A model generated the notes under the pieces. The model saw nothing but the letters and a program-made list of their open reading frames with translations. It was not told the origin of the DNA and searched no databases. A stretch of 63,068 bases of DNA, counting the filler, from Collodictyon triciliatum (lineage: Eukaryota): assembly GCA_043381765.1 (NCBI GenBank). It is 31 parts of 31 records of this genome, joined end to end, with 100 filler letters (N's around TTAATTAATTAA, not from the genome) between each part and the next. Parts side by side here need not be neighbours in the genome. Positions count along the whole stretch, not along the records: positions 22,460 to 24,402 come from JBHJMP010009866.1; 30 more parts are not named here. One strand, 5' to 3'. Both the position numbers and the translations under genes were made by a program. Positions 3,989 to 35,703 of the stretch are shown here, piece by piece; within the stretch, counting starts at the first letter, position 1, and each line of letters starts with the position of its first letter.

Positions 3989-4299
3989 NNNNNNNNNNNN
4001 NNNNNNNNNNNNNNNNNNNNNNNNNNNNNNNNTTAATTAATTAANNNNNNNNNNNNNNNNNNNNNNNNNNNNNNNNNNNNNNNNNNNNTTTTTTATTCTT
4101 TTTTATTCTTTTTTTATTCTTTTTTTATTCTTTTTTTATTCTTTTTTTATTCTTTTTTATTCTTTTTTATTCTTTTTTTATTCTTTTTTTATTCTTATGT
4201 GTTTATTAGTTAATTTATAATTTGTTAATATGTTTATTACTATCGTCATCATCAGGTGCGGTTTCCAATCCAAAATTTAATTAATATATCTATATCTAG

Positions 4300-8324: not shown

Positions 8325-8652
8325 CCCTCGGCTGCTTCTCTCCTCGCTCGGTCCTGCAGTGGGGCCCGTGTTTTATGGTTTTGTTTTGATTTGTTTTTTG
8401 TTTGTTTTTTGTTTGTTTTTTGTTTGTTTTTTGTTTTTTGTTTGATTTTTGTTTTTGGTCTTAGTGGTGGGTGCGTGCCGAAGCGTGTGTGTGTGCGTGC
8501 GTGTGTGTGCTGCCTACTTGCTGATTCATGGATTGAGCCTGCGCAGGCTTTTCTTTGTGCGGAAATATAGGGTTTGTGATTAGGCTCTGCATCAGGAACT
8601 GATCGGGTTGGGTTTCTTTGGGCCACTGCTGTATCTGGAGTTTATATGAATA

Positions 8653-8770
8653 CTAGATGACGCATACCAATATTTCGAATAGTAAACCTGGTCTGCTGGT
8701 ATCCAAGGTCTCATCACTTTTCACAAAGATTGTGTGGTGGTGAAGGCTGTCAGAAATGCCTGGACAGCCT
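8653..8770 (-). ncRNA. Putative Fanzor omegaRNA scaffold, copy A
   Basis: Sense AGGCTGTC..GACAGCCT hairpin, TCACCAC..CACAA-TCT-TTGTG..GTGATGA hairpin, degenerate terminal hairpin, then CTAG|T. Confidence 0.65.
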
Positions 8771-9640
8771 GTTGTTTTTTCAGTGAGTTGTATGCATTTT
8801 TTGAAGGATTAAAGGAACTTCAATGAGTAAATTTTTAGCGCTGATAAAGTCCCTTGTCAAAAATACAATTTGTTTGCTTTCTGAGTGATTGCATTCTTTA
8901 TGTATATCAGGCATCTATACAGCTTTTTTTGGATTCCCTTTCAGTTTCATATATTCCAGTTATTTTTCGCAGTTGCAGCACATCTTGGAGGTTCTAAATT
9001 CATCCACACTATCTGGTTCAAAATGTTTGGATAGTATTTTTCGTAATCCTTTTCCGATCGTTGCCATAAAATGTTTCATCGGACGTTTTCTGCTCCAGTC
9101 TCCATACGCCAGTACAACATCCTTGCCAAATGCCTTTTCGATTCGGTCCATAAAAAATTCTTCACTTCTTTTTGTATTAACATACTGTATCCATCTCATC
9201 TTTCGAAAAGTCACTTCATAAAATCTGGATAATTCTATCTGGTAACTCGATTTCATAGGTACATATTCTCGAAATTTTTTTCATAACCGACCGTGCATGA
9301 ACTATGTTTACTCCGTTCTGTCTCTAAACCGATTAAAGATACTCTTGATGTCTCAAACTGCTGAATTTCTTAAAAAGTGATATGACCAAAAGAAACAGCT
9401 CTTTGTAAATCTGTTGCCATGCATATCCCTGAAGAATTGTACTTTTCTTTCTCTCACTAGAGTATTTTGTGATTTTTAAGATATTTGCTATCATGTCTTG
9501 TTTGGTGTGCCGTGTAATATAATTTCTTACCTGTCTCATCCACCACGTAAACAAAATTAAACTTGCCTGCGCCCACTCCAACTATTTTTTTTTCTTTTGT
9601 CGCTAATAAAGATAACTGCTCTTCGGAAAGTTCATCTGTA
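8653..9640 (-). mobile_element. Fanzor1-like transposon copy A (3' half, pseudogenised; interrupted at 9640 by a LINE 3' end)
   Basis: FGKDVVLAYGDWSRKRPMKHFMATIGKGLRKILSKHF..VDEFRTSKMCCNCEK and TRDFISAKN, with frameshifts. Alignable by eye to copies B-D. Confidence 0.88.
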
Positions 9641-22013: not shown

Positions 22014-22474
22014 TCCAAACATTCTCATGAAATAATGGAAAAAGAAAAGAAGAAAAAGAAAAGAGGAGCGCCCAAAACAAAACACAACATTTCATCTCCC
22101 CCTTCTTCATACTATATGACTCAGCTCCCCTAAACTTACACTATCACACTCCTCAATATACATTCCCCCGATGTCCATCTTACTTTTCTTCATGACCATC
22201 ACCAGCAGAAAAATGAATAAAGAATTTAAGAAAAGTTTACACAGAAAAACAAGAAACAAGAACAATAAAAACAATAAAAACAATAAAAACAATAAAAACA
22301 ATAAAAACAATAAAAACAATAAAAACAATAAAAACAATAAAAACAATAAAAACAATAAANNNNNNNNNNNNNNNNNNNNNNNNNNNNNNNNNNNNNNNNN
22401 NNNTTAATTAATTAANNNNNNNNNNNNNNNNNNNNNNNNNNNNNNNNNNNNNNNNNNNNCGCTTTACCAGCAAA

Positions 22475-22594
22475 CTAGAAGGGGTTTACCAAACGAAAGA
22501 TTGGTAAACCTGGTGCGCTAGTATCCAAGGTCTCACCACTTAGTTCACAAAGATCGTGTAGTGGTGAAGGCTGCCAGGAAATCCCCAACAGCCT
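22475..22594 (-). ncRNA. Putative Fanzor omegaRNA scaffold, copy B
   Basis: Three hairpins, including a perfect 10-bp stem GGTTTACCAA/TTGGTAAACC (22483-22492 and 22501-22510) next to the terminal CTAG at 22475-22478. Confidence 0.7.
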
Positions 22595-22869
22595 GTCTTT
22601 TAGAAGAAGATGTAGGCATATTTTGAAGGATGAAAAGAACTTTGTTGAGTATATCATTAGCGCTGATAAAGTCCCTTACCAAGAATACAGTTTGTTTGCT
22701 TTCTGACCGATTGCATTCTTTATATGAGACATCTATTCATTTTTTTTTTTTTTTTTGTATTTCCTTTCAGTTTCATATATTCCTGTTCTTTTTCGCAGTT
22801 ACAACACATCTTGGAGGTTCTAAATTCATCTACACCAACTGCTTCAAAGCGTTTGGATGTATTTTTCGT

Positions 22870-22914
22870 TTAAAAGACGAGACTCTTGCACTTTGAATCG
22901 AATTAAGGAAAAAA
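22870..22914 (+). mobile_element. 45-nt retroposed LINE 3' tip inside Fanzor copy B, with target-site duplication
   Basis: TGCACTTTGAATCGAATTAAGGAAAAAA matches the LINE 3' end. Flanked by GAT(A)GTATTTTTCGT at 22856-22869 and 22915-22929, which is single-copy in the other Fanzor copies. Confidence 0.8.
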
Positions 22915-23798
22915 GATAGTATTTTTCGTAATCTCCTTCCGATTGTTGCCATAAAATGTTTCACCTGACATTTTCTGCTCCAGTCTCCATAGACCAGTAC
23001 AACATCCTTGCCAAATGTCTTTTCGATTCGGTCCATAAACAATTCTTCACTTCTTTTTTGTACTTACATACTGTCTCCATCTCATCTTTCGAAAAGTTAC
23101 TCGTTCATAAAATCTGGAAAACTCTATCTGGAATCTTGATTTCATAGATACATATTTTCGAATTTTTTTCATAATCGACCGTGCTTGAAATATATCTACT
23201 CAGTTCTGTCTCTAAATCGATTAAAGATGCTCTTAATCTCTCAAACTGCTGATTCTCTTCAAAAGTCAGGGGAACAAAAGAAGCAGCACTTTGTAAATCT
23301 TTTGCCATGTATATCCCTGAAGCATTATACTTTTTCTTTCTCGCACATGAGTAGTTTGTGATTTTTAAGAGATTTGCTATCATGTCTTCTTTGGTGCGCC
23401 ATGTAACGTAATTTCTTACCTGTCTCATCCACCATCTAAACCAAATTAAACTTGCCTGCGTCCACTCCAATTATTTTTTTTCGCTAATAAAGATAACAGC
23501 TCTTCGGAAAGTTCATCTATATATTAACATAATCTTGGAACTTTTTTTTTTATTATACTTGAATTTTGAAATTGAAATACCTTTCTTTTCAAACAATGAT
23601 GACACCGCCAAGCTGTCTGTTTGTATCATGTATTTAAAATTGTAGTCTCTTTGACGAAAGACCCTCTTCTTCATTTCAAAGAAACCATCCCATCGGGTCT
23701 CTTTGCATCCTGATATATATTCAGTAGATATTTTTCCAGATAATACTAATAGAACTATCAAACATGCAGTATCTATATTAATGTGACATGGTATATTG

Positions 23799-23866
23799 CG
23801 GCTAGCGAACCAAAGCCAACATCCCCCCTCGGTCCTGCACAAAGTTGAAAGGAAGAATAAAAAAAA
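23799..23866 (+). mobile_element. 68-nt retroposed insertion (second 3'-end family) with 15-bp target-site duplication
   Basis: Perfect direct repeat TGACATGGTATATTG at 23784-23798 and 23867-23881. The insert ends GAAAGGAAGAATAAAAAAAA and is absent from copy D. Confidence 0.82.
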
Positions 23867-24718
23867 TGACATGGTATATTGTTAGTTCTTATAGAGATTG
23901 GTTGAAACAGTTTTGTTCCACTGTCCTTAAAAATGCGATACATGTAAATCAGACATGGAATGCACTTATTTGGATTGACTTTGACGATATATTTGATACC
24001 ATTTACAATATCGCTGGGAATGATATGATGCAAATGCTTCATAGCCCATTATTTATATTTTTCCAGTATTTCGAGTTTCTTGAAGATGGCTTTTTTTTTT
24101 TAACTTTCGTAACTCTGCCATTTTAATGGCATCCGTAATATTCTCATCTTTAGGAACTTTTGATTTATAAAGCGCAGTAACCTCTTTACAAAATTTTCCT
24201 TATTGTTACTATGAGAAACTGTTAACATTTGCTTCGCCAGGTACGGTAATACATGAGACAATCCGACCAACGGAAAGCGCTCTTCTCGGGTCAAAAGGAA
24301 TCGAAAATCATTGAGATAAAAAAGTCATCATGTCGATACTCAATTCTGGTTTGTTTTTTTTTTTAATCTTGCTGGTCTATCTTGTGGAACTATTCCGACA
24401 GTNNNNNNNNNNNNNNNNNNNNNNNNNNNNNNNNNNNNNNNNNNNNTTAATTAATTAANNNNNNNNNNNNNNNNNNNNNNNNNNNNNNNNNNNNNNNNNN
24501 NNTATTTGTGTTACTTATTTGTGTTACTTATTTGTGTTACTTATTTGTGTTACTTATTTGTGTTACTTATTTGTGTTACTTATTTGTGTTACTTATTTGT
24601 GTTACTTATTTGCGTTACTTATTTGTGCACATTATGTTAATTATTTATCATTTATTTCATCAAAATTTAAAGGAGCAAAATACCCGCTCCAAACTTATCG
24701 TATTTATAACTACCACAG

Positions 24719-34699: not shown

Positions 34700-35081
34700 C
34701 CAAACGTTTTGAAACAAGTTAGTGTAGGTGAATTCAGAACCTCCAAGATGTGCTGCAACTGCGAAAAAGAACTGGAATATATGCAATTGAAAGGAAATAC
34801 AATAAAGGTGTATATATGTCACACATGTAAAGAATGCAATCACTCAGAAAGCAACCAAAGTGTATTCTTGACAAGGGACTTTAGCAGCGCTCAAAATATA
34901 CTCAAGAAAGTTCTTTTAATCCCCCGATAAATGCATACACTTTTCTCTAAAAAAAAAAAACAGACTGTCGGGTCTCTCCTGGCAGCCTTCACCACTACAC
35001 GACACTTGTGAAAAAAGCAGTGAGTCCTTGGATACCAGCGCACCAGGTTTACCAATCTTTCGGTTGGTGGGCTCTTCGTAA
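34700..35081 (+). mobile_element. Fanzor1-like transposon copy C (3' end only; contig starts inside it)
   Basis: VGEFRTSKMCCNCEKELEYM..ICHTCKECNHSESNQSVFLTRDFSSAQNIL gives RuvC-II Glu, Zn ribbon and RuvC-III Asp in one frame. Confidence 0.9.
34962..35081 (+). ncRNA. Putative Fanzor omegaRNA scaffold, copy C
   Basis: Same three-hairpin layout. The terminal stem GGTTTACCAA/TTGGTGGGCT keeps pairing through G-U substitutions. Confidence 0.65.
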
Positions 35082-35703
35082 TTACCTAACAAAGGAGAAT
35101 TGCTCGAAGGCACGCGGTGCAAGGGTCTGGAGTTCGTTTGGGAAAATCCAGAATAAGGTTTCTCCACAAATAGAATTTCTTAACTGGGAATTGGAATGAC
35201 AAAAGAGCACAGGCCCGCGAAGGAAAACAAGTGAAACGGAGCGGATTGGACGGGGACGGGTTTCTCCGTCTGGCGCTGTGATCTGCGTCTGGCCTTTGAG
35301 CGCTGCTGTTGGAGTCAGTCTGGGCCATACGCGCCCGAGCCTTTTTTTTCTTTATTCTCTTATTTTTGTACTTTATTCATTATTTGTTATTGACTCTATA
35401 TTCTTTCTATATTTTCTTTTTCATCTTTATCTTTATCTATATCTTTTCTTTTCTTTTTCTTTTTCTTTTTCTTTTTCTTTTTCTTTTTCGTTTTCGTTTT
35501 CTTTTTCCTTTTTCTTTTTCTTTATTCTTTATTCTTTGTTCTTTTTCTTTTTCATTGGACTTTTCATTTTTCTTTGTTTTTCATCATTTTTCTTATTCTT
35601 TTTTCCTTTTCTTCTTTACTTTTCTTTTTTCTTTCCCTGGTCTTTTTTCGTTTCCTTTTTCGTTATACTTTACTGTTCTTTTGTGTGGTAGCAAAAAGGC
35701 AAG

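Follow-up and report, generated by a model that had tools for sequence, protein, structure and literature searches.

A structured block at the 3' end of four decayed Fanzor1 copies in Collodictyon triciliatum, a candidate relic of an omegaRNA scaffold

Guide RNAs of Fanzor nucleases have been described previously. The omegaRNA of SpuFz1 consists of a conserved 75-nt scaffold ending at the right-end inverted repeat and a variable guide of 14–15 nt, and the omegaRNA of GtFz1 overlaps the last 17 codons of its ORF (Saito 2023, PMC10432273). Reported omegaRNA lengths are 150 nt for GtFz1, 90 nt for SpuFz1 and 75 nt for PpFz1; stem-loop SL1 comprises 7 bp in each of the three Fz1 complexes with a solved structure, and the RNA of GtFz1 forms four stem-loops (Xu 2024, PMC11423790). 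Fanzors are associated with Mariner/Tc1 among other transposons, and their guide RNA overlaps the right inverted repeat, with conservation reaching into the coding region (Jiang 2023, PMC10530073). Here, we analyzed a block of about 120 nt from Collodictyon triciliatum (GenBank assembly GCA_043381765.1), for which a sequence-only reading had proposed a conserved three-hairpin omegaRNA scaffold with compensatory changes.

Decayed Fanzor1 copies and their right ends

The window, i.e. the whole stretch of 63,068 nt that was analyzed, consists of 31 contigs of ~1.93–1.94 kb each, arranged by descending size and connected by 30 linkers (44 N + TTAATTAATTAA + 44 N, e.g. at 1945–2044 and 3989–4088). 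Three more runs of N lie inside contigs (41467–41754, 55678–55727 and 59960–60530). The sequence has a eukaryotic appearance. Since the window is a chain of joined contigs, neighbours by window coordinate are not neighbours in the genome. Copy B of the repeat studied here is located at the very start of contig 12 (22460–24402), and a blastn search of this contig against the window revealed three further copies, in contigs 24, 5 and 18 (copies D, A and C), at 81–90% identity. Copies in contigs 12 and 5 read on the minus strand, those in contigs 24 and 18 on the plus strand. A microsatellite, (AACAATAAA)n at 22255–22359, reaches the end of contig 11, which resembles an intron-bearing gene, and adjoins copy B only through the concatenation. 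The four copies comprise the following elements:

22474–22594, minus strand: 121-nt 3' module of copy B (candidate omegaRNA scaffold) with the best-kept fold (z −4.51, an outlier among 47 windows)
48327–48445, plus strand: 3' module of copy D (alignment of the four copies)
8652–8770, minus strand: 3' module of copy A (alignment of the four copies)
34962–35082, plus strand: 3' module of copy C (alignment of the four copies)
22545–24402, minus strand: decayed Fanzor1 ORF of copy B (P0001 residues 83–643, three frames)
46980–48364, plus strand: decayed Fanzor1 ORF of copy D (P0001 residues 180–642, three frames, in-frame stops)
8789–9633, minus strand: decayed Fanzor1 ORF of copy A (P0001 residues 346–624, two frames)
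34718–34999, plus strand: C-terminal ORF remnant of copy C (P0001 residues 551–642), truncated by the contig start at 34700

The repeat on these four contigs encodes a Fanzor1 (TnpB-like) nuclease and is decayed in every copy. A 210-aa ORF fragment, read through its stops (written as X), matches the Fanzor1 proteins in the PDB (PpFz1, E 1.4e-12; SpuFz1, E 1.2e-7; GtFz1, E 3.4e-7). In a large protein collection we found an intact relative, P0001, with 648 aa and 66% identity to the fragment, together with nine further relatives that are all more distant. P0001 itself matches the solved structures at E values of 2.1e-28 (GtFz1), 2.7e-24 (PpFz1) and 3.7e-23 (SpuFz1). Judged by these similarities, the repeat ORF can be assigned to the Fanzor1 family. 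A Pfam search with the window fragments gave a single sub-threshold match to Cas12f1-like_TNB (E 0.027; score 15.1 bits, cut-off 26.3). Motif remnants in the window ORFs include GVDAGKF, VDEFRTSKMC..C and RDFISA. In the alignment of relatives, D364, E555 and D604 are invariant, and we take these residues to be the RuvC triad.

None of the four window copies has an intact ORF that includes the acidic RuvC residues and the CxxC zinc-finger region. When P0001 was compared with the window by tblastn, each copy required two to three frames or contained stops, with in-frame stops in copy D, and these copies are therefore Fanzor1 pseudogenes. No window copy extends to the left end of the element or to the N-terminus, the longest beginning at residue 83 of P0001, and an intact Fanzor1 ORF of this repeat family was not found within the window, all four copies being frameshifted or interrupted by stops. 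Differences between the ORFs affect the three codon positions evenly (19/26/24 and 19/22/28), which indicates that the copies diverged mostly through neutral decay; under such divergence, selection on an RNA is not expected.

The 3' module lies on the strand of the ORF and overlaps its 3' end, an arrangement common to all four copies. It begins 47 nt ahead of the stop codon, corresponding to an overlap of ~16 codons. In copy B, the stop codon (22545–22547, module positions 48–50) falls within hairpin 2, so that hairpin 1 and the 5' half of hairpin 2 are coding. The module and its flank in copy B are composed as follows:

22568–22594, minus strand: hairpin 1, 11 bp with a 5-nt loop, entirely within the coding tail Q-A-V-G-D-F-L-A-A-F (copy B fold)
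22533–22567, minus strand: hairpin 2, outer stem of 8 bp and inner stem of 5 bp, with the stop codon in the 3' arm of the inner stem (copy B fold)
22509–22529, minus strand: extra helix, module positions 66–70 with 82–86, CUUGG/CCAGG (RNAalifold)
22483–22510, minus strand: hairpin 3, 10 bp (copy B fold)
22474–22482, minus strand: unpaired tail of 9 nt, up to the loss of likeness between copies, i.e. the right end of the element (copy alignment)
22460–22473, minus strand: flank past the right end, where a guide would lie; it ends at the contig start after 14 nt

Hairpin 1 has 11 bp in copies B and D and 8 bp in copy A, and the extra helix overlaps the first 2 bp of hairpin 3. The copies cease to be alike ~9 nt after hairpin 3 (...CTAGT) and continue into unrelated flanks; among the matches listed when the flanks were compared with each other, all were of low complexity. 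Related contigs from two public runs also lose cover at ~48440, with one loose end running from ...CCTTCTAGT into poly-A. As both the likeness and the contig cover end at this point, we consider it the right end of the element. The flank of copy B is truncated to 14 nt because the contig starts at that distance from the block. When the window was searched for the terminal 19 nt in inverted form, only the copy itself was returned. Copies D and A, as well as a single loose end, continue with TA after ...CTAG, and copies B and C with TT; a TA target-site duplication was considered, but the pattern was too weak and the candidate was rejected.

Fold and substitution pattern of the 3' module

The fold of the copy B module lies far beyond chance, reaching −45.2 kcal/mol with a z of −4.51, and none of 200 shuffled sequences was as good. 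Of the 47 windows obtained by sliding 121 nt along the contig of copy B, the two covering the module had z values of −4.5 and −4.7, while the other 45 ranged from −3.1 to +1.9. The second most structured window of this contig (22642–22762, minus strand, z −3.09) contains a poly-A tract and zinc-finger codons just upstream of the module. Three of the four module folds are eroded: z is only −2.27 in copy A, −1.39 in copy D and −0.32 in copy C, the last two being typical of shuffled sequence. Copy B also folds well on its antisense strand, with a z of −3.62 compared to −4.51 on the sense strand, and of the pairs in the four-copy consensus 36/37 form on the sense strand versus 31/37 on the antisense strand.

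The sequence-only reading proved accurate in its description of the block. All strings that it quoted were found where it had placed them, hairpins 1, 2 and 3 read as it described, and the block of ~120 nt does overlap the ORF end on the sense strand. The same holds for the changes from U-G to U-A and from U-G to C-G in copy A and for the four G-U wobbles in copy C. Its account of these changes as compensatory was not borne out. Across the three hairpins (34 pairs, 135 cells in four copies), 89.6% of the cells are paired, but none of the 34 pairs changed on both sides; 14 cells pair through a one-sided change to or from G-U, a further 14 cells, which the sequence-only reading left unmentioned, are unpaired, and a column-shuffle control on the three hairpins of the four decayed copies gave no covariation signal. 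RNAalifold, proposed at the time as a check, added to the four copies one extra helix with one two-sided change, from G-C to A-U in copy D. At this site, G and C are the majority letters in related contigs from public runs. The claimed conservation in all four copies only follows from the block belonging to a repeat: the module is present in 4/4 copies but no better kept than the remainder of this repeat, with a pairwise identity of 70–82% in the module compared to 81–85% in the 300 nt upstream.

Substitutions are distributed unevenly within the module. Stems carry 0.36 substitutions per column, close to the 0.38 of the dead ORF upstream, while apical loops carry 1.2–1.7 and the 3' tail 0.9 (module columns 12–16, 42–44, 95–102 and 111–121). 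Since stems change as fast as the dead ORF, the location bias stems from hypervariable apical loops and not from protected stems. Hairpin tips seem to be hypermutable in this Fanzor1 repeat. In addition, we relocated the substitutions at random onto like bases, a test that rests on four related sequences and on a structure derived from one of them. The observed 136/148 paired cells compare with a null of 121.2 ± 3.1 (1/5,000), and with 130.0 ± 1.9 when relocation was confined to stems (33/10,000); on the antisense strand, 121 cells compare with 112.8 ± 3.1 (33/5,000). Substitutions thus spare pairs to a modest extent, slightly more on the sense strand, which is suggestive but not proof. Of the proposed selection on RNA structure, the argument from wobbles and conservation fails, and what stands is this modest pair-sparing signal. 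More generally, wobble changes among a few pseudogene copies are no proof of selection on an RNA.

Between copies, hairpin 3 differs by an exact reverse complement of its apical tetraloop, which reads UUUC in B and C and GAAA in D and A (approximate sites 22493–22500 in B, 35056–35063 in C, 48421–48428 in D and 8669–8676 in A), and its closing C-G pair is kept in spite of the loop inversion. Grouping the copies by this loop conflicts with the grouping by position 8 and by the loop of hairpin 1. Such an inverted tetraloop is the hallmark of an inversion mediated by a DNA hairpin. Taken with the hypervariable loops, it indicates that the palindromes also act as hairpins at the DNA level.

Intact relatives and database searches

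Metagenome contigs were scanned with an alignment of the ten proteins, and the best 80 of 469 relatives' loci were kept. The closest of them (L001–L006) show 41–47% identity to P0001. These metagenome relatives, L001–L013 among others, are complete elements of ~3.3 kb. In L002 (1637–4952), for example, a left inverted repeat is followed by a DDE_3/HTH_28 transposase on the opposite strand (1638–2678), an intact Fanzor1 ORF and a 3' module ending in the right repeat. This layout of inverted repeats, transposase and 3' module agrees with the description in Jiang 2023 (PMC10530073).

The relatives carry a 3' module of their own at the same position, covering the last codons, crossing the stop and ending abruptly (...GGTGTAAA). 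An alignment of 13 loci revealed one hairpin in which 3/4 pairs changed on both sides, and 0/500 shuffles reached its covariation score; 2/13 rows are off by one column and were scored as unpaired. A second hairpin (consensus CGCCGA/TCGGCG) keeps its pairing by a register shift, and L006 and L057 differ there on both sides. In the tails of L001–L006 and L057, a strongly conserved C-terminal peptide, ..EKVGQSVDF.., lies over the conserved RNA module, which suggests that the conservation of this peptide may arise from constraint on the nucleotides. As a terminal inverted repeat, the final ~33 nt of the relatives' module occur downstream of the ORF in 35/80 loci and, inverted, also upstream in 15 of these (best 80 of 469). 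In L002, the sole locus examined for a transposase, the DDE_3/HTH_28 gene is situated between the left repeat and the nuclease gene. A tblastn search with this transposase against the window gave chance matches only (E ≥ 4.5), without any transposase relic.

Likeness between the module of the window and known RNAs was searched in several ways. A covariance model built from the four copies (R1) matched only those four when applied to the window and the best 80 of 469 relatives' loci, and an nhmmer profile of the relatives' module gave no match in the window at E ≤ 1. In Rfam 15, no family reached its gathering score anywhere in the window, and around the module there were two chance-level matches (E 1.3 and 5.8); for one relative's module, a single match at E 0.49 was obtained. 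No relative of P0001 was found in viral contigs. Matches to a degenerate 19-nt motif in 4 viral and 28 prokaryote-genome stretches were treated as chance, the best E values of R1 there being 0.61 and 0.91. Three of the 28 prokaryote matches (L096, L097 and L110) come from one Gallionellaceae MAG, each near a contig end; because none of them matches the covariance model, they are probably an unrelated bacterial repeat.

Ten listed public runs each contained a minor fraction (0.05–0.07) of the query's words, none of them being on record as RNA. Related contigs at 80–99% likeness were also found in four public runs (17, 293, 126 and 4 in X1–X4); these matches are contigs only, lacking strand, RNA ends and phased copies, and the depth drop across the module is not interpretable. 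The family is abundant: 293 contigs of run X2 and 126 of the freshwater metagenome X3 align to copy D (46990–48445). Private letters of copy D are mostly minority states among the aligned contigs.

Readings of the module and comparison with known systems

Altogether, we regard the block as a probable ancestral omegaRNA/fRNA scaffold from a family of Fanzor1 transposons, surviving as relics in four dead copies. The protein family, the position, strand and boundary of the block and the exceptional fold of copy B are direct observations; that an active ancestor transcribed the block, bound it by protein and used it with a guide is what we infer from them. In such an ancestor, the RNA would have been made from the sense strand, starting within the last ~16 codons of the nuclease, and would have folded into three to four stem-loops, namely hairpin 1, hairpin 2 with its inner stem, an optional 5-bp helix and hairpin 3. 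It may then have been bound by the Fanzor1 protein and have extended past the right end, where the next ~15–20 nt of flank would serve as the guide for DNA cleavage. Support comes from the relatives, since they carry a covarying 3' module at the equivalent place, and from published Fanzor omegaRNA/fRNA scaffolds, since those lie at exactly that position (PMC10432273, PMC10530073). Of the original proposal of an omegaRNA scaffold, therefore, the Fanzor1 ORF, the strand, the overlap with the ORF tail and the right boundary stand and are joined by the relatives' module, while the arguments from compensatory changes and conservation were lost. Several findings count against this reading: hairpin 1 has 11 bp (8 in copy A) instead of the 7 bp of SL1 reported for the solved Fz1 complexes; R1 has no match in the relatives, the relatives' nhmmer profile none in the window, and Rfam none; the inverted loop of hairpin 3 points to hairpin formation at the DNA level; the module is kept no better than the repeat, next to a neutrally decaying ORF whose rate the stems share; no pair of the three hairpins changed on both sides, and three copies fold like shuffles or little better. 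From four decayed copies, the scaffold reading cannot be proven.

One alternative is that the hairpins act as DNA, i.e. as a recognition structure of the transposon's right end (an inverted repeat, subterminal palindromes bound by transposase, or a cruciform), with an incidental RNA fold. The reverse-complemented tetraloop of hairpin 3 (UUUC versus GAAA), apical loops that vary 3–4 times more than stems and ORF, and the well-folding antisense strand of copy B (z −3.62) all speak for such a role. The last ~33 nt of the relatives, found inverted upstream in 15/80 loci (best 80 of 469), and the DDE_3 transposase of L002 point the same way, and they imply that right-end DNA signals and the RNA module overlap in this clade. 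However, five G-U pairs of copy B are C-A mismatches on the other strand and G-T in DNA, the consensus pairs form at 36/37 on the sense strand but only at 31/37 on the antisense strand, and hairpin 1 with half of hairpin 2 lies inside the ORF, ~75–120 nt from the end and thus deeper than a typical inverted repeat of ~30 nt. Inverted repeat and guide-RNA scaffold moreover coexist in published Fanzor loci (PMC10530073), so that a role as DNA does not exclude one as RNA. As a full explanation, we regard it as unlikely. It seems quite improbable that the block is a relic without any guide function, either a structured mRNA tail resembling a 3' UTR or terminator, or palindromes simply carried along by the repeat. 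Pseudogene status of all four copies, a module kept no better than the ORF, the neutral ORF divergence and the lack of a matching RNA family in Rfam 15 would fit this explanation, but within this element the copy B fold stands out as extreme, and stem substitutions keep pairing more than relocation predicts (33/10,000). In addition, the Fanzors tested in PMC10432273 and PMC10530073 all carry their guide RNA at exactly this position.

A further possibility is that the module is still in use, the copies being 'ghost'-type guide loci with a dead ORF whose RNA serves, in trans, a Fanzor1 encoded by an intact copy at another place in the genome. The pair-sparing signal beside the neutral codon-position divergence of the ORF, the perfect fold of copy B despite its broken ORF and the abundance of related contigs in runs X2 and X3 (293 and 126) would be in line with such use, as would the ghost loci of S. 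punctatus, which retain the omegaRNA region (PMC10432273). In contrast, stems change like the dead ORF (0.36 versus 0.38 per column), copies C and D fold like shuffles and the window holds no intact ORF of the family, which makes continued use highly improbable. Doubtful, too, is a compound reading in which a scaffold of a Fanzor1 lineage without detectable RNA likeness to its nearest intact relatives is under selection in ORF-dead, trans-complemented guide loci, and flips of the hairpin 3 loop between UUUC and the GNRA-type GAAA are harmless; such loci would resemble 'ghost' loci but keep the wreck of the gene.

If the preferred reading of a relic omegaRNA scaffold is true, the block adds one more Fanzor1 guide-RNA scaffold, of the long, GtFz1-like form with three to four stem-loops and overlap with the ORF tail. 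Scaffold sequence would then turn over fully between Fanzor1 clades that are still ~45% identical in protein. Catalogues of compact eukaryotic RNA-guided nucleases would gain somewhat from such an addition; no new question is opened, as Fanzor guide RNAs at the 3' end have been known since 2023 and the copies studied here are dead.

Among known systems, one comparison is with TnpB of ISDra2 (IS200/IS605), a prokaryotic element that is moved by a Y1 transposase as single-stranded DNA. Its scaffold likewise overlaps the 3' end of the nuclease gene and ends at the right end, with the flank as guide (PMC10432273), but it has no sequence relation to the window module, and Rfam 15 gave no match. The metagenome relatives (L001–L013 and others) belong to the same protein clade and share a module reaching from the coding tail to the right end, with several hairpins, one of them covarying, and an abrupt end. 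They differ in that their 3' module has no detectable sequence or covariance-model likeness to that of the window, in their terminal inverted repeat of ~33 nt (both ends in 15/80 of the best 80 of 469 loci) and in the DDE_3/HTH_28 transposase of L002, of which the window holds no relic.

Among the characterized Fanzors, SpuFz1 resembles the window copies in a scaffold that ends at the right-end inverted repeat and is followed by a variable guide of 14–15 nt, and in the genome of Spizellomyces punctatus with its many full, partial and ORF-less copies (both PMC10432273); the window ORF fragment also matches its protein (E 1.2e-7). Its scaffold, however, measures 75 nt, lies past the stop codon and has only two stem-loops (PMC11423790), whereas the window module measures 121 nt and overlaps the ORF. 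GtFz1 is likewise a Fanzor1 and the best PDB match of P0001 (E 2.1e-28). Differences from GtFz1 lie in the first stem, with 7 bp in SL1 against 11 bp in hairpin 1 (8 in copy A), counted from a 5' end of the RNA that is only presumed in the window, and in the window copies being dead and known from sequence alone. The overlap with the ORF, in turn, is 17 codons in GtFz1 (PMC10432273) and ~16 in the window module, and an RNA of ~150 nt with four stem-loops (PMC11423790) compares with 121 nt plus guide and three to four stem-loops. By overlap, length and stem-loop count, the window module is thus most like the GtFz1 type.
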